Assembly: GCA_008632985.1 (NCBI GenBank)
Contig: QPGO01000020.1
Span: 620,001-684,000, forward strand
Direction: 5' to 3'
DNA length: 64,000 bases
Source: Psammoneis japonica
Lineage: Eukaryota
Part shown: one piece after another, positions 14,013 to 60,484 of the stretch
Layout: every line of letters begins with the position of its first letter
Position numbering within the stretch: position 1 is the first letter of the stretch
Made by a program: the position numbers and the translations under genes
Notes under the pieces: model-generated
Databases searched by the model: none
Told to the model about the DNA's origin: nothing
Seen by the model: only the letters and a program-made list of their open reading frames with translations

Positions 14013-17000
14013 TCAGTCGAGATACTTGAGGGTTGAATGAATACCAGGGTAGGTGGCAATCGATCACTTTTTGTGTTTCTTATATTGTTTGGTGATCAGA
14101 TGATTGCACGAGGATCGTGACTGGTTGTCCCCCGATCTGGCGGCGTTGCGGGGCGGGGGCATAGCAGCACTAAAATAATTGACGTTTGCTTCTTCTGGGT
14201 TTCCCCCCGATCATGGGAGTGAGGTGCAAAAAGTGGAAGCACCTCATGGAGGGGCGAGTCTATGGATCGTTACTTTTTCTGATTGTTCAATTGCTGAACC
14301 AAGAATAAGTAGACTTGTCTCTTTCATTCGATGATAGGCCTTGTCAGAAATGTGGTTAAACAAGTCGCTACCAGGAGTTTGTGTGTTCTAGCTTGCTACT
14401 GTGACCCACAAGTACTGTAGTTCTCTACTGATGGGAGTTATTGGGTCATCGCATTTGACTCGGCGTGGTTCAGTTTTAGAAGAATCAACTAGGGATAAGG
14501 ACAAGAGATTCAAAATGGATTAGACCAATCTAGTTGGTCTAGCCACCTGGTTAGACGGTACGAATTGTTCTGGCCATATGGTAACAGTAAGGTAGCTTTT
14601 CTGCATTGGTTTAGAGTCCCTCGCACACTTATTTCACCCTACTTCGAAAACATATGAGCGTCAAATCTATCGCGAGCGTCATATCATTGTGATAACTTTC
14701 GTTCTTCGATTGCGATGCGCTTGTGTGTGTATGTGTTTGGTCCAGGTCGCGCATGGCCGTCGTCAGATCTTTGCGGACGCATGTCAGACGTAGATTCTTA
14801 ACACATCAAAAATGCCGGCATGATGTGCAGTGTCTAAAAAGATGATGCTACGATCTTTGTTTTTGCCGCTTGCTGAATTCTGCACCACTCCATCTCCACC
14901 CGGCACATGTGTGGTCCATGTCTGGGCTGATCACTTTGGATTAAGCCACCATGTGTGGTCTTGGCTGGAGTTTGAAGGAAACGGCAGTGACAGAGAGCAG
15001 CGCGACACAGCCAGTGAGAGTGGCAAGCACTGGGATCCTCCCTGCAAACTGGCGACAGTGATGACATATGCACTGGCAAGAAAAAGTGAGAGAATTGTCC
15101 ACTCATCATGTCTGACTGTCATCCATGTGCAGTCTGACCTTGCACAGCAGTCGGTCTGCTGGCACCCTCTCCTCCTGATCCAGCACATCAGCTGGCACAA
15201 GTGCAGATCAAAAACAGGCACAATGGCAAGCAACCAACAGTCAAAGGAACATGGGTCAAACAGGATGACTCAGAAAAGAAAAACAGACAAAAAATGAAGC
15301 CAGGTGCTGCTCTTCTGCAGAAAACCCAAGCCGAGGTTCAGAGCATCAGTGACAACACGTTCCATCATCCAACACGCAAGCTCACAAAGTGGTGCAAGAG
15401 GGGTGGGGATGTGAGGCTCAATTTGTGAACAAGTGCAAGCAAAGTGCTTCAACCTTGCTCTTGTCAATCTTGCAATCTCCGCCTCCATCACTCTTCAGCA
15501 CAACCAAGAGGAGTCTTGCCAGATCTTTTCCTCCATTGAGTGTTTCATGAAGTGCTGGCGGATTTGCCAGATGCTTTCAATGTGGTCACAACATGTGAGC
15601 AAACTGTGCCTTCTGTTGTGATGGCAACAGCTCAAAGCAAGCATCCAACTGAGGTTTTTGGGCTGGCTGACACACTTTGCCATCATTCCAACCTGCAATG
15701 GGCACAGGTGCAGAGTTTGACACTGAAGGCATGAGGGACTCAACAAACACAAAGCACTGTTCAGCATCTCTGTGAAAGACAGCCCTGCACTCAGCTTGGA
15801 ATCATCTCTCAGCCTCAGCCTTGCCACTTGCTTGGGGGGGGGGGGCTGCTTTCTTGGTAGAGAAAAGATGTCATGGCTGAAAACACACCCTCTCCGCATC
15901 AGGTGTGGGGTGCCTTGGCTCTGTCATCAGACTCCTCCCAGGCATTTGCCACAACAGGACCCAAGATTCTTCTCTTTTGAGCATGTGCGTGCCCCTTGAC
16001 CAAAGCTCCAGATTTTGAACATGTGCCAGGGCAGTTTCTTGAGAGACTTTGGGCGAGCCACATGCACACACACACACGTGCCTCCATTTTGCACTTGTGC
16101 CTGCTTCTGTGGGCATCTCATTCTGCGCCCCTTGTCACATGCCGCTGGCCCACCAGCATCAGTCATCTGAGGTTTGCAGCCCAGCAGTCATGGTGCAGAC
16201 TCCAGTCATTGGGCTGGCTTGGCATGGAAGCAACAACTGGAAGGCCCTGACTGCAAACAGTGGCAAGTGCCAAAACAACGTTCTCTCACATGAAGAATGA
16301 ACAACACCAGGTGGAAACAATTGTTCACTCATCTCAAGGAAAATGACATGGCAGCAGCACAGCAGCCATCTTGGATTGGCACATGCCCCTTGTTGTTGCA
16401 GCATCATCACACTGCCCTTGTTGCAAGGGCCTTTGCAACAACTGTTGCGGACAATGTGAAAGGCTCTAAAGCAAGCACAAGAAGCACTTTGAGAGTCACT
16501 CAAGACACTGTGAACCAGCAGCATCAGCTGAGACTGTGACTGAATGGAAGCAACAAGAGGCTGAGCACTGAGCTCTTGTCTTGACTTGCCTTGAACCCCT
16601 CATGCTGCGATGTCTTGCAAGTGAAAAAAGCAACATTGTGAGTGACAGAGCTGAGCCAACAGCAATGCTGCACTCCTCCACCTGCCTTTGAAAACAACAT
16701 GGCGTCACAGAGCACATTGTCCCACAATCTGCCAGCAGAGCAGCAGCAGGACAAGCAGGTGGCACTGCAGCCAAAACAAGATCAGCAAAAGCAGCCCACA
16801 TGTGTGCCAAACAACTCACACAAAAATGCAAGGCATGGCATGATGGGAAACTCACACTGACAAAATTGCTGTCATTCTTTTGTGTGGTGCCAGCAATGGC
16901 ACTGTGGAAGCCAAGAAGCACAGGCATTTTTCTTTTTGCAAGCTTTGCCAAATCTGCTTTCCCTCCTCTTGTTTGTGTCTTTTTGGCACTTGCAGCTCCC

Positions 17001-17714
17001 CTTGCATTCTTCAACAAATTGAGGCAAGAGAAACATGCGCACATCATCTCCCATTGTGTGGCAAACATGTCCCACACAATGCCAACTCTTCAAGCTGTTC
17101 TTCCTCAAGAGCTCTGTTGAGCTTCCTGGCATTCCTCAAAACAAAGCCCATTGTTGCCTGTTTGACCATCATGCTCCAAGATTCTTCCCATCCTTTTTGT
17201 GCTTTTTGGAAAATCATGGCAGCTCTTACATTCCTCAAGCCATTGAACAAGGAGTTGGTGATGAATCATTTCCCACTCAGAGCCAAAATGACAAACACAC
17301 CCAAAGCTGTTGTTCTTTGATTCATGACATTGCTGCTCTTCATTTCAAGTGGTGTTGAATCTGGGAGCTTGGATGACTCAAGCACCTGGGAAGGGGGTTC
17401 TGTCTCTTGCAAAGGTCTTTCAAAACTGGCACTCTTGCCAGTCACAAACAAGGCATCCTTGTGCAACTTGGGGCCAATTTGACCATTGCATCAAAGGTTC
17501 ACCATGCAAGAGAATCATGGCCACCCTCATCATCTTGCATGCACACCCAAGATGATGTTTGCTGCTGGGAGCCTTCCAGCCAATGCACCCAATCATTTGG
17601 CTTGCATCAGTGGCAGAACTTTGAACAGGATCTGCCATTGCTCCAATCTCTGCTGTGCCATGTTCACACTGGTTGCCAAAACTCTGCAGCTCTGGCATCA
17701 ACAAATTTGCTTGC

Positions 17715-20120
17715 AAGAACATTGTTGCCCAGACTGGAGTGTTTCAGACAAGCCAAAAATGTTTTTTGTCTGGACAAGAATTTTCTTGCCCAAACAAGAG
17801 TGTCCCCCAGACCATGTTCTTGCCCAAAAAAGAACACTCTTGCTGGAATGTTCCAGGCAAGCCAAATGGAGATGGTTGGCAAGCAATGAAAATTCTTTGC
17901 AGAAATGAAAATTTGCAGTGCCGACCAGGCACAAACATCTGTCTGATGACAGTTTGTCATTGCAAGCTGAGACAATTGTGCTCTGCCAGAAATTTCAGCA
18001 GTGCATCAATGCAAAAAAGTTGCTCTCTTGCCGCTGCTTCAATGTGGTCTCTCCTTGTGCTGCAGAGTCATTGACTTTGACAACAAAGCTCCAGAGCCTC
18101 ATCACATGGCTCATGCATCAAACTCCAGCACCACTTCTGTTGCTGCTGAAGCTTCTCCTGTGGAGGGAAGGCTTGCACTTGCTCGACACCAAGAGCAAAA
18201 TCACATCAAGCAAGCTTGAGGCCACTGGCAAGAGTGACACAAGCAAGGAGGTCATGCCATCCCCAGAAGACAAATGCCAGAGGGCTTGTGAGTGTGCGGA
18301 CCATGGCAAGAAGAAAACTTGTCTGGAAGACTGGAAAAGGCCCTCTGAGATGACAGGTGGTGAGCATCTGCTGTGCAATGATCCAGACCAGCTAAAAATG
18401 TTCTGGGCCATTCTTGCCCCTGCTGGACAAGAGTGCCCCAGATGAGCAAAGAATGTTCTTGCCCAATCAAGAACATTCTTGCCCAAACAAGAATGTCCCA
18501 GACGGCCAAAAATGTTCTTGTCTGGACAAGAATGTTCTTGCCTGGGCAAGAGTTTTCCAGACCAGGACAAGAACATTCCTGCCCAGATGAGAATGTTGTT
18601 GCCCCCAGACTGGAGTGCTCCAGACAAGCCAAAAATGTTTTGGTCTGGACAAGAATTTTCTTGCCCAAACAAGAGTGTCCCAGACCAGCCAGGAACATGT
18701 TCTTGCCCAGACAAAAACATCCTCACCCAGACAAAAACACTCTTGCCCAGACAAGAATGTTGTTGCCCAGGATGGGATGTTCTGGGCAGCCCAAATGTGT
18801 TTTTGTTTGGATGCAAATTTTCTTGCCCAGACAAGAATGTCCCAGACCAGCCAAAAAAAATGTCTGGACAAAAGCGTTCTTGCCTGGACAAGGAGAGTGT
18901 TCCAGACCAGGACAAGAACATTGTTGCCCAGACAAGAATGTTGTTGCCCAAACTGGAGTGTTCCAGAAAAGCCAAAAATGTTTTTGTGTGGACAAGAGTG
19001 TTGTTGCCCAGACAAGAGCGTCCCAGAAAAGCCAAAACTGTTTTTGTGTGGACAAGAACACCCTTGCCCAGACAAGAATGCTCTTGCCCAGACAAGAGCA
19101 TCCTTGCCCAAGCTGGAATGTTCCAGGCTGGCCAAGTGTGTTTTTGTCTGGACACAAATTTTCTTGCCCAGACAAAAGAGCACTCTTGCCTGGACAAGAG
19201 CATTGTTGCCCAGACAGGAGTGCTCCAGACCAGCCAAAAATGTTCTGGGCCATTCTTGCCCACCAGACAAGATTGCCGGCCTGTTCCAGCTCCAGGTGCT
19301 CCGCGTGGGTTCGATTCCCATCATTTGGAATTTTTTTTTTTTTTGCAGGTGCAGCGCAAATAACTTTTTCAAAATCCGTTTTTTGCCAAATCGAAGGGTA
19401 AGTGTACACTTTACATTTATTTTTGGGTGTGCACTCACCTTTCGATTTTCAAAATGATCAAAATTGAAGGAGTTAATTGCGCCAAACTGCGCAGAAAATC
19501 GGCCTCTCTCGTGATGAAAAGCAGATCACCTGGAGCTGGAACAGGCCTGCCCCAGATCAGCAAAGATTGTTCTTGCCCAGGCCAGAATGTCCCAGACCAG
19601 CCAAAAATGTTCTTGTCTGGACAAAAATGTTCTTGCCTGGACAAGAGTGTTCCAGACCAAGACAAGAACATTCTTGCCCAGACAAGAATGCTGCTCCCCA
19701 GACTGGAGTGTTCCAGACAAGCGCCAAAGATGTTTTTGCCTGGAGACAAGAATTTTCTTGCCAAGACAAGATTGTCCCAGACTGGCCAGGAATGTTGGTG
19801 CCCAGACAAGAACATTCTTGCCCAGACAAGAGTGCTGTTGTCCAGGCTGGAATGTTCCAAGCAAGCCAGCTGCATTTTGTCTTGACTCGAATGTTTTTGC
19901 CCAGACAAGAATGCTCTTGCCTGGACAAGAGCATTGTTGCCCCTGCAAGAATGTTCCAAACCAGCCAAAAATGTTCTGGGCTGTTCTTGCCCACCATGCA
20001 AGAGTGCCCCAGAACAGCAAAGAATGTTCTTGCCCAGACAAGAGTGTCCCAGAACAGCCAAAAATGTTCTTGCCTGGACAAGAGTGTTCCAGGCCAGGGC
20101 AAGAACATTCTTGCCCAGAA
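17715..20120. repeat. Degenerate tandem satellite of ~19-22-bp quasi-palindromic units (TCTTGCC[CA/TG]GACAAGA..) with higher-order blocks, interrupted at ~17870-18380 and by a MITE
   Basis: Dozens of copies of cttgcccagacaagaatg / cttgcctggacaagag / cttgtctggacaagaa and ccagaccagccaaaaatgtt. Confidence 0.9.
19278..19547. mobile_element. MITE family A, copy 1 (270 bp; 21-bp TIR GGCCTGTTCCAGCTCCAGGTG; TSD TGCC)
   Basis: Perfect TIRs, 4-bp direct repeat at 19274-19277 and 19548-19551, near-identical copy at 41604-41864. Confidence 0.9.
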
Positions 20121-23100
20121 AAAAGAGCCTGCTGAGGCTGCCACTGCAACAGCAAAAATGCAGCAAATGCTGTCCCCGTGTGATCTCAAAGTCTCAAGAA
20201 CTCCTGGTGGCTGTTGTGTCCCACATGGAAGCCTGTGCAGCCAAGCCAGCTCACAGGTGATGCACAAAATGACATTCCCTTTTGAACACTGTTCATCAAA
20301 AATGCTCACATGTTCTGGCTTTTGTCTTTGATTCAAGCAGGGACATTTGAACATTTTTTTCATGGGGGCTCAAGTCTTCATGGAATGTGCGCCACAATTT
20401 TTTTTCTGCAAAAACAATGCTGACTGCACGTCATTGCTTGCTCATGATGTTGCAGAGAATTTTGTGCAAGCAGACTGCTGCTGCCAAGTGCACGCAGAAG
20501 CAAATGTGTCATTTCACCTGCAAACAGTGACAGTGTGCACGTCTTCAAAAATTTTGGTGAAAATCATCCATTGTGTTGCAACTCATTTGTCACAATGAAG
20601 GGACATTGATTGCACAAAAACAACGATGTTGCAACACTGATGTGAGTCTTGTCACAGGGTTGCAAAACAACAAAGTTTGGACAAATTTGTGCTTTTGGCA
20701 GCAAAAACTCATTCACATGTCAGAGACCATGTGAAGGCTGACAGCATCTGTTTTGGGGATGAGGAGGAGCCTCCACAGCAGCCAGAGCTTTGTGCCAACA
20801 ACATCAGCAGCCAGCTGTGCAGCACCCACTGCTGAAGTGCAAGAGATGTGCAATGGCTCATTTGCTTCTGAGCCAAAAAATGAGGCAATCTGCTTTGCAG
20901 CAAACTGGCAAGACATGGTCTGCGAGATCTGAGCCTTTGGCTTTCAACTTTGACGAGCCCAACTTGAAAGGGGAAAATGGCAGTTGTCAGCCTGTTCCTC
21001 CAACCTGATGTCTGAGCTTCTGCAGCAAGCAGAGTGACGGACAACAATCACAAAGAGGCGGCAGAAGCCAGCACTTGCATGTTTCATTTTTACAACCACA
21101 CATGAAAGTTGCAAATGCGTTGTGCAATTTGCAGAATTCTGCAATGATGAAAACCTCGGGTGATGACAATGTCATTTGCAGTTTTCAGGAAAGGATGAAT
21201 CTGAGTGCATGCTGAATGATGTTGACTTCGCGCAAGCAAATTCACACGATTGGAATTCACAGCCCATTTGACAACCACACAACAGTGCATGTCTCAGCTC
21301 TCAGTGCAGATGCTGTCATGTCCAGCATGACAGGTTTTGGCGTTGTTTCAATGACAGAGCAGTGTCATCATGGCCTTGCTGTTTCATCCTTGGTGTGGCA
21401 TTGTTGCAGAGCAGAAGTGGTGGCAGTTCTGCAGCAAGCACAGATGCCTTCTCTGCCTTTGCCAACAGCTTTGAAGAAGAAGAAGAAGAAGAAGAACCAA
21501 ATGGAGCAATGTTTGGTCAAGGGGAAAAAGAAGAGGTGTCATGGCAAGCAAGTTTGGGTGATCTCTTGAGCACAAATGAAGAAATTCGTGACAGCACACA
21601 AGCTGCACTCCAAGATGGAAACACAGGCATTGCATTCTTGCTGCTGTGGTGCGCTGCAAGGTTTGGTGGGTCCAGCTTGCAAAGTGGCACAAGAGGGAGA
21701 GGGCTGTGAGATTCAGGAATGTGAAGGACAGGTGGCGACCTTGACAAACATGGCAAAGGTGGGTGAGCCTTGCTTGGCAGATGATTGGCAAGTGGAGCAG
21801 CCGCCTTCAATGTGCTTGCTGCCTGTCTGTTTGGAGCCAATGGCGAGGGCAAGAACATGGCCATGCTGACACTGGTTGCCACAACATCACTGGGTGAAAT
21901 GCAAGAAGATGCCAATGGCTTTTTATGAAAAGGGCGCTGTCAAGATTGTCGATGCACCCCCAGCCAGACTGGCTGCAGTGCAATTCGCGGGATTTGTCAC
22001 CAAGAGTGAAGAGTGCCATCAAAAAGATGCACTCCTTTCATGACTGGAGTTGAGTGGCATGGAGATTGACATCTCACATGAAGCTGTTGTGCCACATGTT
22101 GTGTTTCAGTGCAATTTGCCCTGTGCCATTCCAGCTTCAAATTGTTTGGCACAACAAAATTGCACTGCCCACACGAAGTGATGGAGATGAGTCTGCCAAC
22201 CTGAGAACAGAATGGGAAGCTGCAGATGGCAATGAAGATGCTGCCACTCCTGACATGGAGGCTGCAGGCCATGTGAAATTGTCCAGCAATGTGGATGTGC
22301 GGAGTGGACTGGGAAGACAAGCAATCCAATTTGTCAGCTCCTTTGGGCTTTGGGACAGCTGAAGAATTGTTGATGTCAGCATCACAAATGGAGAGAGTGC
22401 GAGTGGCATCAGTCCAATCTAGAGCCATCCATCCCCTGCCAGAGACAGATCAACATTTCCCATCATTGTGCAGATGTGCCATCCAATGGTCTTGATGAGA
22501 CTTGAGCATCTGTGAAGAAAGGATTCTGCTCTTGCAGCGTGCCCCCTGCCAAGCTGCTGTGCTGCTCCTTTTGCCCCCTGAAGCTCCTTGTCAATGACAG
22601 ATTGAGCAAGTGACACCTGGAAACATCATCACTTCCATCATTGTCCCCCATGACTTTCTTGACCAACTCCATGGAACTTGACAGACAGGCAGTTGAGAAG
22701 AGCAGCTTTCAATCTTTGCCATTGCAAGACTTTGAACCCACCTTCAACCAATTGGTGCAACTGCAATTTAAGACACTGGATTCAATCATCTCAGTTGCAG
22801 CACAATCAACCTCAATCATTGCCATTGAAAGACTTTTGGCCCACCTTCAACCAATCAGTGCAACTGCTGCTGTTGAGAACACTGGCTTTTGTCAACTGAG
22901 TTGTGGCACAATCAACCTCCTGGGAATGAAAAAAAGCAGTTTTCAGTGCAGAGTCAATGACTTCCTTTGACTCGAGGCAGAGAAACTTCAAACAAAGCAA
23001 AAGCATCACAGCTCAGAACCTCCCACTCCCTTTTTCTGCCAAAACAATGGCCAAGTTGTGAAAACCAGCCTCCATGCACAGTGCTTCACAGTCAGTTGCT

Positions 23101-25301: not shown

Positions 25302-25351
25302 GCTCAGCGACCACACTCAGCGACCACACTCAGCGACCACGCGCTCAGCGA
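25302..25351 (+). repeat. 13-bp minisatellite (CTCAGCGACCACA) x~4
   Basis: Directly visible tandem copies. Confidence 0.8.
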
Positions 25352-45625: not shown

Positions 45626-45629
<4 letters not shown>

Positions 45630-45666
<37 letters not shown>

Positions 45667-45672
45667 AGAGAG
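45630..45672 (+). repeat. (GA)n microsatellite
   Basis: Directly visible. Confidence 0.95.
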
Positions 45673-48781: not shown

Positions 48782-49453
48782 GGTGGTAAGGATATGGTGT
48801 GCAGATGGTGTGTTGAAGGCATGCGTCAGTGTGTGTTGCGGCAACCGCCTTGTGTATCTCGCAGCGTCAGTTCTGCGGTATCCTGTTGTCCATCATCAAG
48901 AGGCGTTTCATTGCAGGGCTGTGGGTAATCGACGCTACGAATAAGCCAGAGAACAACCGTGTCAACATCACCGTTGTATGTCCATTGTCCATAAAGTGCG
49001 AAAAAATGCTCAAGCACTTTTCTTTGCCGTTTTCGCTTTTGCCTGTCGTGTGCACATGGCTGGATGGACGTACAGTAGAGTGTTCTTACCGACCCGTAGG
49101 GGACCCTTTTTTCCGGGTCTCTTTTTGTATGACGTCATCGTGCGAATATAATAGCGCCACCTGACGTCACCGCACCTGTAAGTCGCCATGAGAACCCGTA
49201 GAAAACGCCATGTCTTACAGCTACAGGGGGGAAACATAACCTGCTGTATCTGTAAGCGGAATGATTTCCGCTCGTACAAATTCTACGTGATTTCCCCGTG
49301 CACCGTCGCTTGCGGGTCGAATCAGAACTCCGAAGAAATGATGTGTGAGAAGCAAATCCCGTGACACCTCTCTCGCGACAAAAAACACACATCAACGCAT
49401 TCTCACGATGCTCTAGTCATAACAAGTCATAGCATCCATGCAACACATCTGTC

Positions 49454-50512: not shown

Positions 50513-50741
50513 AAGAGATGAGGCTTTGCTTGGCACAAATTAGGACACATGTTGCATGTCGCCACAACAACTTCAGAGCCACACAGAAAAAAATCTGTGG
50601 CCTCTCACAGTGCATGCTGAGCATGACGACCCCGCAAAGTTGCGCGCCAAATTCCCAGTGCGTTAAAATGAGCTGGGCGTTGCTCCAGAAGCAATGGGAA
50701 TTTTGCAACAACAAACAGTGTCAACGTCATCTAAAGAACGA

Positions 50742-51712
50742 GAGCTTTCTAAATGGTGTCTTTTTTATTTCCATGCCCCTGTCAGATCCGAATCGGCGTC
50801 GAGATGTCCAGACGACCCCGCAGTTGCGCGCCAAAATCCTGGTGCGTTTTGCTTGAACAGGCGTTGCTTTAGAAGTGCTTAAATTGTGGGACAATCAATG
50901 GCAGCAACATTGTCACAGAGTGAGAGCTTTGTGTCTTTTTTATTTCTACACCCCCATCAGATCCGAATCGGCGTCGAGATGTCCAGACGACCCTGCAGTT
51001 TCGCGCCAAAATCCTGGCACGTTTTTTTTTTTGCTTGAACACGCATTGCTTTAAAAGCACCCAGAATTGTGGGACAATCAACGGCAGTGACATCATTTGC
51101 AGAACAAGAGCTTTCTAATGGTGTCTTTTTTATTTCCACGCCCCTGTCATATCCAAATCGGCGTTGAGATGTCCAGACAACCCCGCAGTTGCGCGCCAAA
51201 ATCCTGGTGCATTTTGCTCAAATGGGCGTGGCTTTAAAAGCACTTGGAATTGTGGGACAATCAATGGCAGCAACATTGTCTGCAGAACAAGAGCTTTCTA
51301 ATGGTGTCTTTTTTATTTCTGTGCCCCTGTCAGATCCGAATCAGCGTTGAGATGTCCAGACGACCCCGCAGTTGCGCGCCAAAATCCTGGTGCGTTTTGC
51401 TTAAACAGGCACTGCTTTAGAAGTGCTTGGAATTATGGGACAATCAATGGCAGCAACATCTTCTACAGAACGAGAGCTTTCTAATGGTGTCTTTTTTATT
51501 TCTGTGCCCCTGTCAGATCCGAATCAGCATTGAGACATCCAGACGACCCCGCAGTTGCTGCCAAAATCCTGGTGCGTTTTGCTGAAATGGGCGTAGCTTT
51601 AGAAGCACTTGGAATTGTGGGACAATCAATGGCAGTGACATTTTCTACAGAACAAGAGCTTTCTAATGGTGTCTTTTTTATTTCCACACCCCAATCAGAT
51701 CCGAATCGGCGT
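50742..51712 (+). repeat. ~183-bp tandem array, ~5.3 copies, between the two Harbinger ORFs
   Basis: gagctttctaatggtgtcttttttatttc..cagatccgaatcggcgtcgagatgtccagacgaccccgcagttgcgcgccaaaatcctgg recurs at ~50742, 50925, 51108, 51291, 51474 and 51656. Confidence 0.95.
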
Positions 51713-51806
51713 CGTTCAGGAAATAGAAGCGCTGAGAGTTTCGCAACAATGTGTGACACAAAGACAAAAGAAGCTACATTCATGCTGAGTTTGCAACAAC
51801 ACAGAT

Positions 51807-54363
51807 CTAATGTAAATTTAAGCAGTTTTGAATTGATGGTGGATCGACACCAAATGTGCCGATCGCACCAATCTGGTTGTGGTTGAAGCACGTGTAACAA
51901 TTTGTGAGCAAGAAAGACACGCGAAGCTGCTCACAAGCATGCGGTGTTTCACAGCATGGCTTGAAAGGACAAAACGTCCTGCAAATTCGAAAGACATTGG
52001 ATGCAACACCATGGCTCCACTCTACCGTGATGCGCACTGCCTTGAGCTGATAATTTTCGAGCACCTGAATGGGCGTGAGTGGAGCTAGCCCGTTGTGGCC
52101 GGGGCGATGCGCATGAATGACGCATTGTTGTTGAGCAAATCCCCGGTCCGCATGCACAGCATGCACCATGCCATTTGGAAAGCAGCCTTGCTGAATGTCC
52201 AGCAAGTGTTGGTTCACGGCTGACAAGTGCTGCAAATCGGTGTCAGCTCTGGCAAACTCGAACAACACAAAGAGCAATGAGAGTGTGATGAGCAGCCACA
52301 TTTTACAGGAAATGCAAAGCACATCGGACTTGTTCCAGACTTAGGTGGCGCGCACATGCCCCTTTTCGCAGAAAAAATAATTTTTTAAAGCTTTATTTAA
52401 CACCGTACATATTTAATAAAATTGAATATATTAATGGCTTTTAAGTAAAATAAACAGAATAAACTCGAACAAACAAACAGCCAAACCGGCCATGGCTTTC
52501 AGTGACCATGACGGCCCACTTTTTTCAGCCTTATGGAAAATTGAATGTCATGACCAGGATCTCCGTATTTGATATAGTCTGTGTCATCAACAACAATAGT
52601 GAAAATGCTTGTTGAAGGCTGCAGCGCGGCACAATAATGCTAAATCTGTCAGCAACAACAATTGAGCCTCTATTCACTCACAATTTGCCTCTAAGGACCA
52701 TTTCTTTTCTATTACCATGTATATTTCCTCAATATATTCGACTGATTCAAGTGTATCAATCGTTTATGCCTTCTAAACCGTGAAAAATGGTCCGAAGTCG
52801 ACGCCATTGCGTGGGCTGAGCTACACTTCTTCTCACGTCGTCCTAAACTTATTAATCAACGGATGCTTTATTCGATCCGTTGAATGTAACTCGTATTCGC
52901 GTATATAAACAAAATATTAATTATGCTATGTTAAAGACTTAATTTATATATATTAATAATATTTTATATGTTTCTTCTTACATTAAGGCGTATATAAATC
53001 GCTCATCGGAAAATTCGAGCTCTCAACTTACGGTACAATTTAGCGACTAATGACTGAGTCCATCAACAGTTTCGAATACATGGGTACACGCACAAGACAA
53101 TTCTGTATGTACCCATAAAAACACATTTGTAAATTGTTATGTTTTTACTCTATCGAAAATGGTGCCGCAAGTGTGGACCGCGCGTTTCATGCAAAAAGGG
53201 TCATTTTTTTGCGCGTGAGTGCACCCAAGTCTGGAACAAGTCATCGGCAATGCACAACTGTGTGCTTGCCTGCGAGCTGAAGTGGGACCCCATGTGATGC
53301 TCAAGCCGTTTGGAAAAGTTGTTGCAAGCATCTTCATGCCGTGAATGTGCTTGCACCCCGTGCACACCGATCGCTGAATGTTGTCTGCGTCAGGGCGACG
53401 CGGTGCATCTGCCCAGTCCTCAACTGGCCCTGTCCCTGGAGCATTTGTTTCAAACATTGAACAATCCACAAAGCCAAAAATGTTGAATTCCCCTGGTGGA
53501 CAAACAAGACCGGGGACGTTGTGCACTTGAGCAGTGTCCGGGTCAGTCCAAGTAGCCCGTTGCTTCAGTTTTCGCTCCATTGCTCTTGCAAACAAGGGAA
53601 AGTCATCAATCCACCTTTCAAGACCTTGTTGCCCAAGTGTGGGAGCACATCTGTCATCAAGATGCATCAAAAACCACCGGCATCCATGCGACCACCGAGT
53701 CAAATCCCTGCCTCCAAAGCACTCATCCACCAACACGGCATTGTCGAGTCCAAGTGCCACCTTGGTCAAGGAAAACAAAAACAATTCCTCACCGGTGAAT
53801 TGGCAATGATGCCCATGAGCACATGGCACAAGAACCAAATCGGGCAGGTCAAACAAAACACACAATTGTCGCAACTGATCCACATTGAATCGTGTCATCC
53901 GCTCGGCGCAGTTGTCAGAGCATTCATCAATTCGTCGGTTATGAGGCAAGACAAAATCAGCAGCACGATGCTCTTCCTCGCATGTCATGTCGCCAATTGC
54001 TGCGTTGCAATCTGCCCAAATGTGAGCCACATGATGACATGCAAAAATGCCACCCAATGTGTGCGCAAGAGCAACGCCAAACGGATCGTCCACATTGCCA
54101 ACTTGTTCTGGATCCAACAAATGACCATTGTCCTGGTTGAAAACATCAATTCTGGACACAATTGAAAGCAGAGTGAGAGTTGCAGACCATTGAATAAGTG
54201 ATTGAACAGAACGCGTCCAGAACACCTCTGTTCTCCTTGGCGCTGACACTCCTCGAGCGTTGAGAGACCTGTCCCTCATGTTTCTGTTGGTGAGCCGCCG
54301 TGGCAATTTGCGGCGGTGTCCATGGTGAAACAGACGTGGTTGTCTTGGCATGATGTGCATCAA
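51807..54363 (-). pseudogene. Harbinger DDE transposase (DDE_Tnp_4-like); exons 54363-53270 and 52248-51807
   Basis: IFGFVDCS, QRSVCTGCKHIHGMK, FPNG, GPTSARR|AD, HADRGF, ENYQLKAVRITVEWSHG, LLTNCYTC. The exons join in frame; the donor reads GCAAGC. Confidence 0.9.
52327..53242. mobile_element. MITE family B (916 bp; TIR GACTTGTTCCAGACTT[A/G]GGTG; TSD ATCG), inserted in the transposase intron
   Basis: 21-bp TIRs with one mismatch; ATCG at 52323-52326 and 53243-53246; AT-rich interior. Confidence 0.9.
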
Positions 54364-54915
54364 GAGTGCAACAACAATGCGACTGCAAAAGTGTTTCTTT
54401 ACCTTGGTGGATGAGAACCCGCAACCCCATCGTCAAAGCATCAAAGCCGCACCCGCACAGGTTGAGCTGATCGGCTGCAGCACCGGGCAGGCGAATTGTG
54501 ATTGAGTCGAGTGGTGAAACACGAATGGATCAGAACCCGAGACCCATGACCCATGCGGGTCGGTAAGAACACTCTAGCACCGGGCGGGTGGTGCGGACGA
54601 AAATGAGGTTCGTCCATCTGTCCATTGAAGCTTGAAGATGTTCGAGCAATCGGTCATCGCGGTCGGTGCCTGGTGCTCGCGGTGCTTCAGTGCTCGGTGC
54701 GGTGCGGCATCATTGGACGCAGTGACGATGGTGCCCACGACTTGCAAAAGCAATGCTGATCCGAGACATTGCATGATTTTTTCTTGTGGATCTTGACCAA
54801 AATGTTGCAATGGCCATGGTTGTTGCACCCCAAAAGAAGCGTTTGGTGAGGCCTCAAAAAGACGCTTCATGCACGAACAGGTGACAGGTGGCTCTCCATT
54901 TTTTTAGCTCTCGGC

Positions 54916-56030
54916 ATGGCAAGTTGCGTTCTGCTGCATTTGTTGGTTCTCGGAGGATCTGTTTTTCTTTTTCGCAATGTCCTTTGGGATCATGAAAGCC
55001 TTCGTGGTGCCTTCAGACATCGCAAACACCACATCTCATGCCCCTGCGTTCAGCGTCACTTGGTGGAAATTTCCAGCTCCACCCATCTCGATTGGAAAAG
55101 CATCTCCACCATGTCAAGAATGAAAGCAAAGATGACGTGATTTTGAGTGAGAATCTGTTGCAAGTCAAAATGCCCTGTTTAGATCATGCCCGGCGCTTTC
55201 TCTTTTTTCGGATGCCTTGGATGCGCTCAAGCTGCAGCGAGGAAAGGATTTGTGTTTGCACACGCGCCAAATGTGGGTTTGCCGCTCAGCATCATGATTG
55301 GTGCCCGGGGCACATCAAAAGGCTGGCATTGTCAACAAGAACATGGATGCCAGAGATGACTTTGTCCATCCCATGTTGAAACAACATTTGGAGGAGGAAG
55401 ATGTCAATTCATCCAGAGCGTGCAAGAAACAACAGACAGCACAATGGCGGTGCATTGCACGGCATGTGTCAATCGATCTGGGCTCATGGGGTGGTGCAAT
55501 GTGTGATTCATGAAGAACAAGTTGTCTTGAGAAAATCCATCTGTTGTCAACAGTGCTGAGGAAATGTGATTTTGAGATCAAACCACAACTTTCAGTGGCA
55601 GCTGGCAGCACTGGCGGGCACGACATGAAGGGTTGCTCGGGCCAGCTCCAGGAGAGCTGCAGTGCATTGCAACAGAGCCACTGAAAAGCCATTCTTCCAA
55701 TGGGCAAAAAGAGACACATGTGGTGGATGCCCCCCTGTTTGCAGTTGCACAGAGTGTTGCACCCGTGTCGTCTGCAGCCTCTTGGCAGCCAAGGCTTCAA
55801 GTGCTGCTCCCATGTGGATTCGTCCACCAGGTCTGAGGTGCAAGTTGTTGCGGCACTGCCAATTGCTTTGGGATTTTCAACTCTGTGTTTCAAAGCCGTG
55901 TCATGTCAAATTGATGAATGATCATGGGTTTTTCTTCATTTGGGTTTTCCTGTCCAAAGCTCTGCCTCCTGCTGCAATCATCCACCTGAAGCTGCAGGAC
56001 CGTGCGTCAGCAATGAGAGACTGAGCCAGG
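54916..56030 (+). pseudogene. Hypermutated remnant of a probable host type II membrane gene (possibly sulfotransferase-like)
   Basis: MASCVLLHLLVLGGSVFLFRNVLW N-terminal TM-like segment and ICVCTRAKCG (resembles a PSB-type KCG motif); lies outside any TIR pair; no TA seen. Confidence 0.3.
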
Positions 56031-56380
56031 GCATTTGAAAGCGACATCAGTTGCATCAGAAACTCGCTTTGCCGAGGAACATTCTGTGTGAGGCAAAAGA
56101 GGGTGCGAGACATTGAGCAACATGCATGCATGTTCTTCTGGAGCAGCACTCGAGCTTCAGGTTTGGGCGGGGGCAGTGAATTGGAACTGCCACGACAAAA
56201 AGGTGTCTGGTTGTGGGGTGCATGATCTTTTTTCTGCTCGTGAGTCATTCAGAAATGCTTGAGGTTGCTCGCATCCCACATCAGGATGAGGACACTCTGG
56301 AGAGGAAAAGTGTTTGCAACGAGTGTGGTGTCTTTGTGAATGCTTTCAGATGCTTGCACTGGGGCCGGAGTCTCTTCTTG

Positions 56381-56935
56381 GACGTGTTCCAGCCGCACGT
56401 GAACCAAATCGTGCACAAAAACGACATTTGCGCGATTTTTGCGCGGTCCCTAACTTACGATCGAACTTTCACCACCAAAAGTATAGATTTATACAAATAT
56501 AAATGTTTTGCAACACTAACAAGACTCGTGTGAGTGTTGCAATATCATTGTTATTGTGCTATCTATGTTTTTCATTGCGTTAAAAGATTCGTAACACAAC
56601 GGATGATTTTCGGCGAAAATATTGCCGTTATTTGGCTGTTACCTAAATATATCTTTCTACGATGCTACTTGGTAGGTTTTCTACCTACAAAAAAATCTCA
56701 GTATAAATCTACTGACGTACAATCAGTATTGAGTCTACTGAGGAAGTTTATGATACATATCCCATGAGGATTTGAATACCCCTCAAAAAACTATTTAAAT
56801 GTTCATACTCTAGAAGCCTATAACAGTCAATCCGTCTAAGTATTTTTATTAAAATGCTATATACACTAAAATATACATAAATTATATTCAAAATCCGATT
56901 GTCGTTTTGTGCGTCACCTGGGACTGGAACACGTC
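56381..56935. mobile_element. MITE family C (555 bp; TIR GACGTGTTCCAG....A[C/G]GTGA; TSD CTTG)
   Basis: Inverted ends; CTTG at 56377-56380 and 56936-56939; AT-rich interior. Confidence 0.85.
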
Positions 56936-57190
56936 CTTGTTGGAATGGCATGGGGCGGGCAGGAAGAGCCCTTGTTTCTTCAGGGCCACACACTGATCTC
57001 CTTGATGATCTAGATTCTTCCAAGGCTGAGGCATCAGATCCACTCGTGATGAGCGGAGAATCCAGAACTCGATCGCCGAGTGCGATGAAACAGATGGCCC
57101 AGATCTTGTCGTTCAAACAGAGTCTGTCGTTAACGGTCGAGCGCATGCTGAGACAAATCATGGTCTGTGCAATGACGGCAACCTGTTCTT

Positions 57191-60100
57191 GTTCAGTCTT
57201 GGCACCAGAACCCCGGGACTGAATCCCTGGTTTTTGAAAATGTGGGTTTGAACCCCAAAATGAAAACATGGGATTGAAACCCGGGTTTTTGTTCACGCAG
57301 CTCGCAGCACTTTTTCTGCGTAATTTTGCCATTTCTTAGAACCCGATGTGACTTTGCTTCCCAGTTCTTGCAGAAAACAGATCACTTGATCCACTGCATG
57401 GCCACTGCTGCTTGCAATGTTGAACAAAGAATTTGACATTTTATGTGGCATTGCTGTCCTGCTGTTCAATGAGACTTTTGATGTGATTTGCATTCTGTCT
57501 CTTCACCGCAATTGATGGTGGTGTCCAGTCAGTCTTGCATTTGTTTGAAAACAGCTGAGTGTCTTCCCTGCCAAGCCCATGCAACAGTGCATCATGACAG
57601 TCAAGGAAACAGGTCTTCTTGCCGCTTGTGCCTCGGTTGGTGGGGAAGTGCAATGGTTTCCCACACAGGTTGCAACTCGAGTGCGAGTCTGCCCTGCACC
57701 AAACACAGACCCTTGGATGCTTGTGGCTGGCAGACACTGCATCGAACTGACAATGTAAGTGCGGCAAACCATGACATGGACAAGATTCATTTCCACCCTG
57801 CTGAGCGTGTTGGCATTGTTCCAATGTCACAAAATTGTGAGTCGTCGTCATTTGTTCCGAAGCCGCTCTTCGATGATGGTTTTGTTGCATTGCAACCCGC
57901 ATTGCGGAGTCACCATGGTGTAAACATGCTTCAGGGTGACACTGCAGCATCTGTCTTGAGAGTTGTTCTCAGAACTCCCAGCAACCCATTGGACTGTTGT
58001 CTTTCCAAGACAAGTCTGACCCACCCTCCGCCACTTCCAAATGCATGTCATGCGCAATGATGATGGCCATGGCCTTGCCATGGTTCATGGCAGAATGCCA
58101 ATGCTTCCAAGAGCAACAGAACATCTTTGCATTTTTGATGCAATGATCCATTGAATCAATTCGTGAGTGAGTTGAAAGATGCAGATCACGGGCTTCATTC
58201 ATCTTGATTGCCCAGTGTTGCTTGCTCTCGTTTCCACCTCTTTCCCGATGCTTCACATGTTTGTTGCACTGGTTGAGGGCATTCACAGCAGCAATGTTGC
58301 ACAACGAGGTTGATTGAAATGAGCAAAGCACATGTTGGTGTCCCTCAGTGCTGCGTGTGGGCACCACAGTCTTGACAGCAACAATCGGATGACCAAATCT
58401 TGCTGCTTTTGATCTTGCATCGGATGGTGTTTGTTTTTTCTGAAAGCACTTCCCTGGCACTCCCGAAGGCAGCCGATCCCTTTGACGTGTGAATGCAGCC
58501 GAATGGCCATTTTCTCCAATCCAGTCTGAGCTGTGGTCAGCATCAAAGCAGTTGTCACATGTTGTGTGTGGCTTTCCTTGGAACATCTTCTTGGGTCCGG
58601 CGTTGTCACCCATTCTGCCAAAATCCACCATTTCGCCTGCTTGTTCCAAGATCACACGGATTTCTGTCAGGCCCATGGCACCCCCCATCCATCTGTCCTT
58701 GGGTGCAATTTGTGTCGGTGAACACAAACCCAAGGTCAGATCCAGTGTGCATCCAACATGATCACTGTCTGACCACCCTTGGCAATGCCGGGCTTTCCAA
58801 CTGTGCGACCGGCAATCCCGCCACCAGCGTCACCACAACCCGCATGGCCCCAGGTGGTTTCGTCACCACATTGATCCAATTCTGCATGGTGTGTCATCGC
58901 GTTGACATTGTGAGCTGTTGTCGTGCATGTCATGTCATGCTTGTGGGCCGGGTTGCACCCAGCTTCTCCTCTTCTGGGGGATGTCATGTTGTTGCATGGC
59001 TTCAGCACTCGCTTCATTTGAAGCCAATGTGAATGATCAATTGACGAGGACATGTCTGAGTCGCAGTCGGATCCATCAGCCATCCACCTGCGGTGAATGG
59101 CTCCGTCACTGCCACCCTTGACACCGTCTCGGACAAATCTCTGTCAAATCTGACAAGCTCCTGGATGCTCACAAGTTTGAGCTGGTGTCCATGCGAAGAG
59201 CACAGCTTCAACTCTCCCGCGGTGCACAAGTTTGAACATGTTTCTGCTTCGCTGCAGAACGACTTTCTGGGGTCTGAGTTGACACCCGACCGTGTGGTGT
59301 CACACATTGGCAGAATCAATTGATGGAAAACAAAGCATCCCAATTTTTCATCTGCTCAGCTTTCATTCCCAATGATCGCAACACATCTGTGTCCAATGAT
59401 CCTTTCCCAATGCCTGGAAACAGGTTGTCTTTTGATGCACCCGATCCATTCGGCAGCGACAACATCTCAGATCTTTGTCATCATCAGCAACATCATCGTT
59501 GGACATGGACCGATCCCACCCCTGATGAAAGAACCACCATCCATGGGAAATTTGTTTCCCTTCCAAATTCTCAGGTGCCGGTGCGGCACCAGTTGGCAAG
59601 CTGTGATGAATGTGCTCCTTCTCCCCTCTTGCCTCAAACTCAGGGCGGAGCGCATGTGTCTGCTCCACCCTCCGGGATTGTCCACATCAGCAAATGGTGG
59701 CTCTCCCTTGTCTGCTTTTATTTCAGGCAGCTGCCACCCTTCAGGAGCACCTGGAACATTCAACTGCACCGACGGGTCATGCTCACCATGGTGCAGCAGC
59801 AAGGCAGCATGGTCATTGTCAGCCACAGTCTGTCCGTCACTGTCTTGGTCCACAACACGTGATCTCAACCGTTCCAAATGGGCTTCAGCACAAGCTCCAT
59901 CAATGTCATTGACATTCTCATGCTCTTCGTCGCTGTCACCACCATCTCCCGTCTCTGTCTCATCCTCAAGGACGTGCTCGGGGTTCACCAGTTGGTCCTC
60001 CACGGTTGCGGGACCAAAGTCTGTGGCCGTCATGCACAGTGGCAGCCCTGGTTGTTGTGCTGCCATTCCACCAAACGCTTCATTGGTGCTTTCAGAGGCG

Positions 60101-60484
60101 GCCATCTTCGTCACGACGTTGATACTCCGATTCACTGAGCGTGTTACTTTGACGACAATGGCGGTGGCTGCGGTTGTTGGTTTTTTTTTTGTAGTCATCG
60201 GCTTTTCAACGTAGACTCAGGTAACATTTCTACGGTGATGCGTCACTGCAAAAAACCCGGGATTCAGTCCCCGAACACCCCGGTTTCAAGCCCACTCTAA
60301 TAACGACAACAAAATGCCAATGTAACTCCAACCGTTAGACATGTTATTTGAAGGGTAAACAGTCATTAACATCCCGACTAAACCCCTCTGAGTAATAATC
60401 AATGGTTATTGGATCTTTCCGTTCAACGGCTAACGGCTAAACCCGGGACTGAATCCCGGGTTTTTCGGGGCGCCCAGACTAAAC
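57191..60484 (-). mobile_element. piggyBac-like DNA transposon (hypermutated)
   Basis: Imperfect TIR GTTCAGTCTTGGCACC vs GTTTAGTCTGGGCGCC; subterminal palindromic CCCGGGACTGAATCCCGGG motifs at both ends; encloses the transposase remnants. Confidence 0.8.
57441..60198 (-). pseudogene. piggyBac (PGBD)-like transposase with C-terminal Cys-rich domain, fragmented
   Basis: CGDETTW, TTCDNCF (=DNYF), IDSMDH, SWKHWH, and C-terminal CVWC..CNLC..LH..CFLDCH; broken by stops and frameshifts; the main fragments are Tyr-free. Confidence 0.8.

Follow-up and report, generated by a model that had tools for sequence, protein, structure and literature searches.

The window, i.e. the whole 64,000-nt stretch of DNA analysed here, carries host genes in its flanks and three long tracts that are poor or almost lacking in the dinucleotide TA, into which several MITEs have been inserted. 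The features discussed below are as follows (coordinates, strand where assigned, description; o/e, observed over expected dinucleotide ratio):

7323..9357, minus strand: GroEL/Cpn60 host gene with several exons, with Cpn60_TCP1 matches in five ORF pieces
14850..25600: tract 1, of unassigned origin, free of TA and poor in CG
19275..19550: MITE A copy 1, inserted into tract 1 at a later time and bounded by 30-nt terminal inverted repeats
41350..45997: tract 2, single-copy DNA that is free of TA and poor in CG
41605..41863: MITE A copy 2, bounded by terminal inverted repeats of 26 nt
49431..50600, plus strand: TA-free segment that contains an ORF of 352 aa without Tyr (49454-50512), family unassigned; TA o/e 0.06, CG o/e 0.54
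50600..51809: partly TA-depleted zone with a 183-bp tandem repeat and families D3, D4 and D6; TA o/e 0.25-0.43
51810..52326, minus strand: Harbinger (DDE_Tnp_4) transposase, C-terminal part, separated from the remainder by MITE B; TA o/e 0.22
52327..53242: MITE B, a later insertion within the Harbinger transposase gene, with 21-nt terminal inverted repeats
53243..54432, minus strand: Harbinger transposase, N-terminal and central part, Tyr-free; TA o/e 0.05, CG o/e 0.68
54441..56379: TA-free segment in which no gene was recognised; TA o/e 0.03, CG o/e 0.61
56380..56936: MITE C, inserted later, with terminal inverted repeats of 23 nt
56937..60210, minus strand: TA-free transposon body comprising a piggyBac-like ORF (57972-58829) and another ORF that lacks Tyr (59467-60198); TA o/e 0.05

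Organism-named matches to the GroEL/Cpn60 exon at 7619-8008 all come from diatoms or diatom-bearing dinoflagellates (69-81% identity). From this one exon the organism appears to be a diatom, as had been presumed at the outset. Mobile genes, of the Harbinger and piggyBac-like types, could be recognised in tract 3, and tracts 1 and 2 are without a recognisable domain. The C-terminal piece of the Harbinger gene (51810-52340) matches PF13359 with an E-value of 4e-7 and 30.2 bits, against a curated cut-off of 24.8, and aligns to residues 273-432 of protein P0001, with Tyr mostly changed to His or Cys; the N-terminal piece fails the PF13359 profile and is 41% identical to the same PF13359-bearing protein. 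The piggyBac-like ORF of the window did not match PF13843 (DDE_Tnp_1_7) even at E <= 10; 717 homologues of it were found, and one of the six that were scanned (P0131) gave a weak PF13843 match (E 5.5e-4, 19.8 bits, cut-off 22.4). This match lies below the family cut-off, and the family of the ORF is best described as distantly piggyBac-like. Pfam searches of the tract 1 ORFs of at least 90 aa gave no domain, those of tract 2 gave no credible one even with stops read through as X, and neither tract yielded an identifiable ancestor or transposon domain. Degenerate internal arrays with a 20-bp periodicity lie at 18.4-20.1 kb in tract 1. A paralogous contig in run X2 spans 49498-50531, in the first segment of tract 3, and differs from it at 15 letters.

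The dinucleotide counts set the tracts apart from their surroundings. Tract 1 (14830-25600) contains 21 TAs where about 452 would be expected at the flank ratio, a scarcity that had been estimated by eye at about 15, and its ratios are TA o/e 0.03, CG o/e 0.21, TG 1.85 and CA 1.73. Tract 2 (41200-46000) has a TA o/e of 0.06 and a CG o/e of 0.26, and tract 3 (49430-60210), which is mosaic in structure, has whole-tract values of 0.26 and 0.68 and three TA-free stretches (49.4-50.6, 53.2-56.4 and 56.9-60.2 kb) at a TA o/e of 0.03-0.09 each. The three TA-poor tracts of the preliminary description are thus all recovered, with the qualification that the third is interspersed with TA-normal MITE islands. 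Its claim of ordinary TA use in the flanking genes also holds, the flanks having a TA o/e of 0.57-0.66 and a CG o/e of 0.90-1.02. These values are plain ratios, which may differ slightly from the Rho used in a related preprint on Bigelowiella natans discussed below. CG is depleted in the same tracts as TA. In 20 of the 64 1-kb windows a TA o/e of at most 0.43 goes together with a mean TG/CA o/e of at least 1.52, and these windows form four runs of at least three. The longest TA-free runs measure 2102, 1798 and 1617 bp; in the flanks no run exceeds 234 bp and the median gap is 15. Tract borders are sharp to tens of bases, those of tract 1 being placed near 14.80-14.85 kb on the left and near 25.60 kb on the right; its last 300-400 bp on the right are TA-free yet CG-dense. 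Non-coding DNA is depleted in TA as strongly as coding DNA, right up to these borders. As had been noted at the outset, AA is intact: AA/TT and base composition are unchanged in the tracts (AA o/e 1.23-1.27 alongside TA o/e 0.03-0.06), which excludes a general loss of AT. Tracts 1 and 2 show in addition an excess of the dinucleotide GC (o/e 1.3-1.48) and a deficit of AT (0.63-0.81), which the two-process simulation described below does not reproduce.

The TA-normal islands of tract 3 are later MITE insertions. MITE C (TA o/e 0.96, CG o/e 1.42) is present in about 230 copies in the run, at a depth of 14,232 in X1, an accurate read set of about 60x assembled into k-mer contigs; MITE B, with ATCG on either side, has a TA o/e of 0.85, a CG o/e of 1.28 and an X1 depth of about 3,000. 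MITE edges divide a TA o/e of 0.96 from one of 0.03-0.09 with single-base sharpness. MITE A has about 200 copies in the run, and its copy 2 an X1 depth of 12,652 against about 61 in the flanks. Copy 1 accounts for six of the 21 TAs of tract 1, has a CG o/e of 0.89 and is 88% identical to copy 2; the two differ by 10 transversions and 13 transitions, five of the latter at sites with TA in one copy and TG or CA in the other, six at CG versus TG/CA sites and two elsewhere. Since young, high-copy MITEs (about 50-230 copies) inside the tracts have a normal TA content, the process that depleted their surroundings is not a steady regional property and, going by the copy numbers of today, is not triggered by copy number.

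Before any biological reading, one has to consider that modified bases at TpA and CpG might have been misread and the errors fixed by polishing. There is no N in the window even within high-copy repeats, which points to a long-read assembly and would fit such an artefact. However, the stretch of tract 2 from 41834 to 45401 is covered by one X1 contig with three differing letters in 3,570 bases, at a depth of 68 (flanks 58-61), although X1 may comprise the window's own assembly or polishing reads and is hence not a fully independent sample. The read-derived contigs are thus without TA at the tract 2 positions, and because they reproduce the tract at single-copy depth, a base-calling artefact is excluded there. 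The single-base sharpness of the MITE borders also speaks against misreading, as does the fact that unrelated public proteins of the piggyBac-like family share the replacement of Tyr by His or Cys. An artefact of assembly or base calling is therefore scarcely credible as an account of the tracts.

The consequences of TA loss are most readily seen in the transposases. Four Tyr-free ORFs had been reported, and all four are present, although their lengths from ATG are 352, 407, 239 and 243 aa rather than the 352, 408, 254 and 243 aa given originally. The Harbinger gene keeps Tyr at none of 14 conserved Tyr columns (six are Cys, one His, two Trp and five other residues); of its 144 other conserved columns, 79 are kept. 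All eight conserved Tyr columns of the piggyBac-like gene read His (six) or Cys (two), and 59 of its 72 other conserved columns are kept (Fisher p = 7e-6). Pooled over both genes, Tyr is found at 0 of 22 conserved Tyr columns, and His or Cys at 15. Some motifs had been singled out earlier: the alignments agree that the Harbinger protein has CTGCK where relatives carry Y-x-G-Y-K and that Tyr has become His beside ADRG (HADRG), while a piggyBac DNCF derived from DNYF is merely plausible, the relatives having F (8), Y (4) or H (3) at that position. It had been envisaged that active copies of these transposons might be equally free of TA and Tyr; relatives from elsewhere instead have normal TA and Tyr, the TA o/e being 0.63-0.65 in three environmental relatives of the Harbinger transposase. 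Among the best 150 piggyBac-like homologues, seven have no or one Tyr and show His or Cys at conserved Tyr columns, in a pattern that differs in each.

Paralogous X1 contigs differ from the window by 252 transitions and 45 transversions. The 40 variants listed out of 305 comprise nine single-site TA versus TG/CA differences, four within two CA-versus-TG doublets, seven CG versus TG/CA differences, five ambiguous ones and 15 others. Differences thus concentrate at TA and CG sites, and the TA-specific excess on which the original proposal depended is present. Judged from these paralogues and from the relatives, the direction of change would be away from TA. A low TA content could also be native or selected, if the tracts came from a TA- and CG-poor donor or virus, or if the transposons had evaded a TA-cutting nuclease or TA-targeting insertions. 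Taken alone, tracts 1 and 2 might have such a foreign composition, as an identifiable ancestor is lacking. Nevertheless, the conserved and probably essential Tyr residues of two transposases have all been replaced and the genes truncated, relatives have a normal TA content, the same site reads CA in one paralogue and TG in another, and non-coding DNA is equally affected. The low TA content is of mutational origin, and we consider a native or selected one very unlikely.

When 96% of TA and 78% of CG in flank DNA were converted in silico to TG/CA, the TG/CA o/e rose to 1.84 (1.73-1.92 observed) and G+C stayed unchanged. Since the simulated products cover the whole TG/CA excess, the changes are transitions, and TpA conversion together with CpG decay accounts for the doubled TG/CA at unchanged G+C. 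Both strands are hit equally. TTA and TAA are refractory contexts: 38 of the 45 surviving TAs lie in them, compared with 600 of the 1634 TAs of the flanks (p = 1e-10), and a model that takes flank-like TA contexts for the ancestors gives per-strand hazards by the 3′ neighbour of A of 2.6 for T, 2.2 for C, 1.35 for G and 0.66 for A. CpG decay is also evident, from a CG o/e of 0.21-0.68 in the tracts and from paralogues that differ at CG versus TG/CA sites. It is a separate, slower process that accounts for only part of the pattern, because tract 3 has lost all its TA in places where CG is only partly gone; the TA-free parts there keep a CG o/e of 0.53-0.68, i.e. only about a third to half of CG was lost. 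The TA-free but CG-dense right end of tract 1 likewise sets the two processes apart.

Pol eta prefers WA sites. The TA loss could be a by-product of the repair of deaminated 5-methylcytosine in heavily methylated DNA, in which T:G mismatches would engage non-canonical mismatch repair and an error-prone Pol eta-type polymerase (WA to WG) would miscopy A:T pairs close by, no dedicated mutator being needed. That TA loss and CG loss share tracts, and that on the right-hand side of tract 1 TA loss extends 300-400 bp past the zone poor in CG, as might be expected of a repair patch, would fit. Yet AA is undepleted (o/e 1.23-1.27) while 97% of TA is gone, a far stricter specificity than a WA preference; the TG/CA excess is wholly covered by transition products, the TA-free parts of tract 3 lost only a third to half of their CG, and according to the available text of the B. 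natans preprint the hypermutated changes there fall on TpA only (bioRxiv 10.64898/2026.01.13.699255). Such a by-product is in our view improbable. Pol eta-type WA to WG mutagenesis as such, which targets both TA and AA and yields some transversions, was rejected on the ratios (AA o/e 1.23-1.27 versus TA o/e 0.03-0.06).

The target could also be thymine rather than adenine. A TET/JBP-type dioxygenase or another thymine modifier might act at TpA, generating 5-hydroxymethyl- or 5-formyl-uracil that mispairs with G and leads to T to C changes. Sequence alone cannot separate A to G on one strand from T to C on the other, both strands are hit equally, and thymine hydroxylation in dinoflagellates prefers TpA. 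Against this, we know of no thymine-modifying enzyme or modified thymine in diatoms, and the chance that thymine is the target appears small.

That the tracts record a real TpA-specific hypermutation is, in our judgement, very likely. As proposed in the preliminary description, a second regional, TpA-specific A:T to G:C process, apart from CpG decay, appears to hit mobile DNA and to destroy transposase genes. Mobile or foreign DNA would insert in the diatom nuclear genome and then be struck by a DNA-level mutational process that converts TpA to TpG or CpA (A:T to G:C, on either strand) with near-complete efficiency and halts within tens of bases of neighbouring genes. It would be superimposed on, and much faster than, ordinary decay of CpG to TpG/CpA, presumably via 5-methylcytosine deamination. 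The outcome would be permanently inactivated transposase genes, in which every Tyr codon, among others, is rewritten. It would be the same process that was observed at work in mutation-accumulation lines of B. natans. We give this reading as a whole, TpA hypermutation plus CpG decay, a probability of about 0.6. The agent could be a dedicated enzyme, most plausibly an adenine deaminase of the TadA/ADAT type that works on DNA and is brought to silenced regions in a genome-defence role, although we hold to an adenine deaminase only tentatively, and for a selected defence rather than a by-product the balance is even. One may further speculate that diatoms and chlorarachniophytes share an ancient, dedicated defence enzyme, a TpA-specific DNA editor of adenine (or thymine) directed against transposons and viral inserts that have recently been silenced, erasing every TA of a bounded domain in bursts and widespread in the SAR supergroup; we regard this as doubtful. 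If true, such an enzyme would in effect mirror fungal RIP, and it would be a natural double-strand DNA A-to-G editor.

A diatom signature means that the process is limited neither to a single alga nor to inserts of giant viruses, and shifts the question to a group with established genetic tools. It also opens a comparative route to the gene, through deaminase or dioxygenase paralogues common to the lineages with the signature and absent from others, and any candidate enzyme would be constrained by strand symmetry, independence from CpG decay, refractory TTA/TAA, action in bursts and domains with definite limits. Base editing would also have an interest in a natural enzyme that makes A:T to G:C changes in chromosomal DNA at one given dinucleotide. 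For annotation, the signature explains why such transposons are missed in profile searches and why long spurious ORFs arise, the TAA and TAG stop codons having been erased.

Among known systems, 5-methylcytosine-driven CpG decay explains the CG to TG/CA half of the pattern in the three tracts but cannot remove TpA. RIP of ascomycete fungi changes C to T at CpA, creates TpA and needs duplicated DNA. The likeness lies in a regional, irreversible transition hypermutation, visible in dinucleotide ratios, that leaves transposons riddled with missense changes and neighbouring genes untouched. The direction is the opposite, as here TpA is removed and CpA/TpG gained, and the system, called RIP-like at the outset, does not look RIP-like in its trigger: going by present-day copy number, the single-copy tract 2 (depth 68 versus 58-61) is saturated while MITEs of about 50-230 copies are spared. 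ADAR and TadA/ADAT2, including the TadA-derived adenine base editors, share the A to G outcome. ADAR, which only animals have, takes double-stranded RNA as its substrate, and ADAR/TadA-type deaminases prefer a 5′ U/T ahead of the edited A. This preference is also cited in the Discussion of the B. natans preprint (bioRxiv 10.64898/2026.01.13.699255). ADAR edits RNA, whereas here the genome itself is changed. Hyper-editing by ADAR via an RNA intermediate, which would strike elements that replicate through RNA, was rejected: the identified victims are DNA transposons, and non-coding DNA is changed up to sharp borders.

The phenomenon is not undescribed, as had been thought initially, for Mettrop et al. 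(bioRxiv 10.64898/2026.01.13.699255) already report that giant-virus and virophage DNA integrated in B. natans undergoes TpA to TpG/CpA hypermutation. In the text available, of the 231 de novo mutations counted in two viral inserts 230 are A to G or T to C, the GC-biased ones all being on TpA, and TpA-poor genes are enriched in DDE transposase and reverse-transcriptase domains (bioRxiv 10.64898/2026.01.13.699255). Beyond this preprint, a full-text literature search returned no report of TpA-specific hypermutation, and none in diatoms. As far as the available text goes, the two cases agree in the change of TpA to TpG/CpA on either strand and in clusters of 1-kb windows poor in TpA and rich in CpA+TpG. 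In B. natans the change is confined to foreign or mobile DNA; here mobile genes are identified in tract 3, and the flanking host genes have a normal TA content. The hosts belong to different branches of the supergroup, a diatom and a chlorarachniophyte, and saturation is reached here (o/e 0.03) compared with a Rho of 0.45 given for the B. natans giant-virus insert in that text. Here DNA transposons are hit, alongside CpG decay, of which the available text of the preprint makes no mention; our data add the refractory TTA/TAA context and the contrast in MITE insertion age, the words ‘trinucleotide’ and ‘flanking’ being absent from that text. Because the preprint describes TpA to TpG/CpA hypermutation, the diatom case is not a first description; it is the second lineage with TpA hypermutation.

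Dinucleotide counts, made in 1-kb windows and tract by tract, bear out the TA-poor tracts pointed to in the preliminary description. The observed/expected ratio (o/e) of TpA in 1-kb windows is 0.45-0.87 in the gene-bearing flanks, as against 0.00-0.09 at 15-25 kb, at 42-46 kb and in parts of 53-60 kb, and where TpA goes down TG/CA goes up, from ~1.1-1.3 to 1.5-2.05. Tract 1 (14850-25600) retains 21 TAs in 10.8 kb (o/e 0.03), where the flank ratio would predict ~452; the o/e of TA is 0.06 in tract 2 (41350-45997) and 0.26 overall in tract 3 (49430-60210), the last value reflecting the mosaic nature of that tract. The longest TA-free runs measure 2102, 1798 and 1617 bp, whereas the flanks have a maximum of 234 bp and a median gap of 15 bp. 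The borders are sharp: at the right end of tract 2, TA occurs at 45796 and 45899, and then about once per 10 bases from 45998. AA/TT and base composition are the same in the tracts as in the flanks. CG is also depleted in tracts 1, 2 and 3 (o/e 0.21, 0.26 and 0.68, respectively), a point absent from the preliminary description. The four ORFs said there to lack Tyr do so, as an automatic consequence of the absence of TA.

The possibility of a base-calling artefact was checked with the one sample that covers the stretch, of which run X1 provides k-mer contigs at ~60x. The X1 contig over 41834-45401, in tract 2, has 3 differing letters and 2 gaps at a depth of 68, and the flanking X1 contigs have 0 differing letters at depths of 58-61; accurate reads thus carry the TA-free sequence at single-copy depth and a base-calling artefact is excluded, X1 being possibly the window's own data and not an independent strain. 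Since tract 2 is both single-copy and saturated, TpA loss does not track copy number.

Tract 3 holds two transposase genes in which the fate of individual Tyr codons can be followed.

Transposase genes in tract 3
51810-54432, minus strand, Harbinger transposase gene, split by MITE B
57972-58829, minus strand, putative transposase gene, only distantly piggyBac-like, with 717 homologues

Pfam searches gave one real match in 106 tract ORFs, to DDE_Tnp_4. The C-terminal piece of the Harbinger gene has a PF13359 match and aligns with residues 273-432 of P0001, a PF13359-bearing homologue to which the N-terminal piece is 41% identical. As for the TA content of related elements, on which the earlier reading had been made to depend, three environmental Harbinger relatives have ordinary TA (o/e 0.63-0.65). 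When the window's protein was aligned with three relatives, a conserved Tyr column being one with Tyr in at least two of the three, none of the 14 conserved Tyr was kept in the window (six columns read Cys, two Trp, one His and five another residue), and 79 of the 144 other conserved columns were. By sequence, the second gene would be only a distant piggyBac relative; a PF13843 match was found, below threshold, in one of six scanned homologues. It is otherwise well preserved, with 59 of 72 conserved non-Tyr, non-Arg columns kept, and all eight conserved Tyr are replaced, by His in six cases and by Cys in two (Fisher p = 7e-6). A Tyr codon (TAY) becomes one for His (CAY) or Cys (TGY) precisely when its TpA is turned into CpA or TpG.

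Other features of these elements deserve mention. L003, a 1799-bp metagenome contig with a Harbinger relative, has a CG o/e of 0.33 and raised TG/CA with normal TA (o/e 0.65), that is, CpG decay without TpA loss, which shows that in nature the two signatures arise independently. A tandem repeat of ~183 bp (50638-51759; 4-6 copies, 65-95% identity) separates the two ORFs of the Harbinger-like element and is only partly TA-depleted (o/e 0.25-0.43). A contig of X2, another run of the same sample, covers 49498-50531 and is a paralogue of the Tyr-free 352-aa ORF with 15 differing letters, several of which give TA, or TG for the window's CA; transcription may therefore persist from one or more hypermutated copies of this element.

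The loss of Tyr recurs among the piggyBac-like homologues. Among the best 150 of the 717 family members, seven (P0145, P0147, P0148, P0176, P0246, P0249 and P0265) have 0-1 Tyr, with Cys and His raised. They mostly carry His or Cys at 11 conserved Tyr columns, in a pattern that is different in each, and were therefore hit independently. In a FastTree phylogeny of 119 family members with Y, H and C masked, the Tyr-poor members fall at several places, with five state changes; support is weak and one origin is compatible with the tree. These homologues may come from the window's species or from others.

The TA-normal islands that interrupt the tracts are MITEs.

MITEs in the tracts (copy numbers by X1 depth)
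19275-19550 and 41605-41863, MITE A, ~200 copies, TA o/e 0.16-0.28
52327-53242, MITE B, ~50 copies, TA o/e 0.85, splits the Harbinger gene
56380-56936, MITE C, ~230 copies, TA o/e 0.96

Their TIRs (A, B and C) have the common core TGTTCCAG, and short matching words flank the elements; the three families have apparent 4-bp target duplications, and look recently active. At the MITE ends a single base divides DNA with a TA o/e of 0.03-0.09 from DNA with one of 0.85-0.96, which implies either that the surrounding DNA was mutated before insertion or that particular elements are targeted. TpA loss is thus no constant feature of the locus, and the process leaves recently inserted MITEs alone.

Comparisons between copies show the substitutions more directly. 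Two MITE copies in the window differ by 13 transitions, of which five are TA<->TG/CA, six CG<->TG/CA and two lie elsewhere; there are 10 transversions as well, several of which fall where a T-run is poorly aligned. Paralogous X1 contigs differ from the window by 252 transitions and 45 transversions. Variant rows were classed by reading, and among the best-supported 40 of 305 there are nine single-site TA<->TG/CA differences, with the paralogue holding TA in eight of the nine, seven CG<->TG/CA differences, five ambiguous multi-base rows and 15 others. The remaining four rows make up two CA-versus-TG doublets, in each of which one ancestral site has been resolved differently in two copies. The spectrum of paralogue differences hence includes both TA<->TG/CA and CG<->TG/CA classes, in agreement with the TA-specific component that had been proposed. 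When 96% of TA and 78% of CG, taken at random, were converted to TG/CA in the window's flank DNA, the simulated TG/CA o/e was 1.84, compared with 1.73-1.92 observed, with G+C unchanged; the loss of TA and that of CG are therefore enough, taken together, to explain the size of the TG/CA excess. Two features of tracts 1 and 2 (measured over 14850-25600 and 41870-45990) are not reproduced by the simulation: the GC dinucleotide is overrepresented (o/e 1.3-1.48) and AT is underrepresented (0.63-0.81). They could reflect ancestral composition or a weaker third context of the same mutator (A before pyrimidine).

The TpA process can be told apart from CpG decay. Where tract 3 is TA-free, the o/e of TA is 0.03-0.06 and yet that of CG is 0.53-0.68, and at the right end of tract 1 the final 300-400 bp contain no TA but are CG-dense. 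This CG-dense stretch (25290-25600) has 14 CG in 80 bp near 25520-25600; TpA loss here reaches DNA showing no CpG decay, and the stretch could represent either a promoter-like island free of methylation or a spill-over into host DNA. With flank ratios as the start, the cumulative TA hazard is at least 4 to 8 times the CG hazard, only a lower bound because TA is saturated, so the TpA process outpaces CpG decay. We hold it to be improbable that TpA loss is a repair by-product of dense 5mC.

With regard to strands, no TG-versus-CA skew was found in 16 segments (strongest p = 0.02, uncorrected), nor were there runs of same-strand changes (|z| <= 1.5). The ratio of Cys to His at lost Tyr is 6:1 in the Harbinger gene versus 2:6 in the piggyBac-like gene (p = 0.04); in view of the lack of same-strand runs, this contrast was not taken as strand coordination. 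Sequence context, on the other hand, matters: TTA/TAA accounts for 38 of 45 surviving TAs, compared with 600 of 1634 flank TAs (p = 1e-10), and the one-strand hazard according to the base 3′ of the adenine, in a model that assumes flank-like ancestral contexts, is 2.6 for T, 2.2 for C, 1.35 for G and 0.66 for A (likelihood-ratio p = 1e-10). The process is thus less effective at TTA/TAA. By symmetry, the same model describes a dependence on the base 5′ of the thymine.

Tracts 1 and 2 yielded no Pfam domains in ORFs of >=90 aa, and when tract 2 was translated in six frames, reading through stops with X, the sole match was to cytochrome b561, which is below threshold and was read as chance. The simplest explanation for the many long ORFs of these tracts, which overlap in multiple frames, is that TAA/TAG stop codons have been erased. 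In a degenerate 20-bp-periodic array at 18400-20150, split by MITE A, all six frames contain ORFs of 200-400 aa, which are almost certainly a side effect of TAA/TAG stop loss and not genes. A tRNA scan of the window found none.

The flanks carry intron-split eukaryotic genes (Cpn60, adaptin, mitochondrial carrier, DENN and ankyrin). For one Cpn60 exon, all matches with an organism in the name are to a diatom or a diatom-bearing dinoflagellate, at 69-81% identity; they include Pseudictyota, Cylindrotheca, Nitzschia, Seminavis and Minutocellus, with none above 81% and transcriptome collections among the sources. On the strength of this one exon we take the window to come from a diatom; an origin in Bigelowiella was considered and discarded, since the named best matches are diatoms and the transcriptomes offered nothing near-identical. 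A flanking 409-aa ORF gave distant matches only in the homology search. A 105-bp piece at 48465-48569 with CT..AC ends is skipped in a high-depth X2 contig and present in X1, a pattern that fits a GT..AG intron in a gene on the minus strand and a transcript origin for X2, though X2 is not recorded as RNA. A 349-aa ORF (12780-13829) resembles part of an atypical 2-oxoacid dehydrogenase E2 or E3-binding protein: it has an E3-binding domain (PF02817) after a long, repetitive stretch rich in Lys, Glu and Ala.

Taken as a whole, the tracts record a post-insertional, DNA-level A:T->G:C process that is TpA-specific, strand-symmetric and bounded in domains. Its agent would be a dedicated enzyme; the strict dinucleotide rule, with AA untouched, argues against a habit of a polymerase. 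First among the candidates comes an adenine deaminase of the TadA/ADAT type that works on DNA, to which we give a probability of about 0.4. A thymine-modifying route seems to us an outside possibility, although sequence cannot separate thymine modification from adenine deamination. TpA loss may be a defence under selection, or it may follow from silencing as a side effect.

The substance of the preliminary description stands, but not its statement that no description of such a process was known, as a preprint (bioRxiv 10.64898/2026.01.13.699255) provides a precedent; the chromatin targeting and defence role proposed there, like the mutator enzyme, are putative. The preprint reports that, of 302 nuclear point mutations in Bigelowiella natans mutation-accumulation lines, 231 lay in one giant-virus insert and one virophage insert, and 230 of these 231 were A->G or T->C, all on TpA, at a rate of ~6e-7 per site per generation and in some lines only (bioRxiv 10.64898/2026.01.13.699255). 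The process in the window probably works in episodes, as would fit this line-to-line variation. The same source reports 124 TpA-poor, CpA+TpG-rich clusters across the B. natans genome, with DDE and reverse-transcriptase domains enriched in TpA-poor genes, and its authors propose an ADAT2-like DNA adenine deaminase (bioRxiv 10.64898/2026.01.13.699255). CpG, diatom, stramenopile, trinucleotide and flanking are nowhere mentioned in its text. Full-text literature searches yielded this one description of TpA hypermutation, no other on TpA-depleted transposons and none in diatoms, and nothing useful on methylation in Bigelowiella. The system in the window represents, in a new lineage and in saturated form, a type of system described once.
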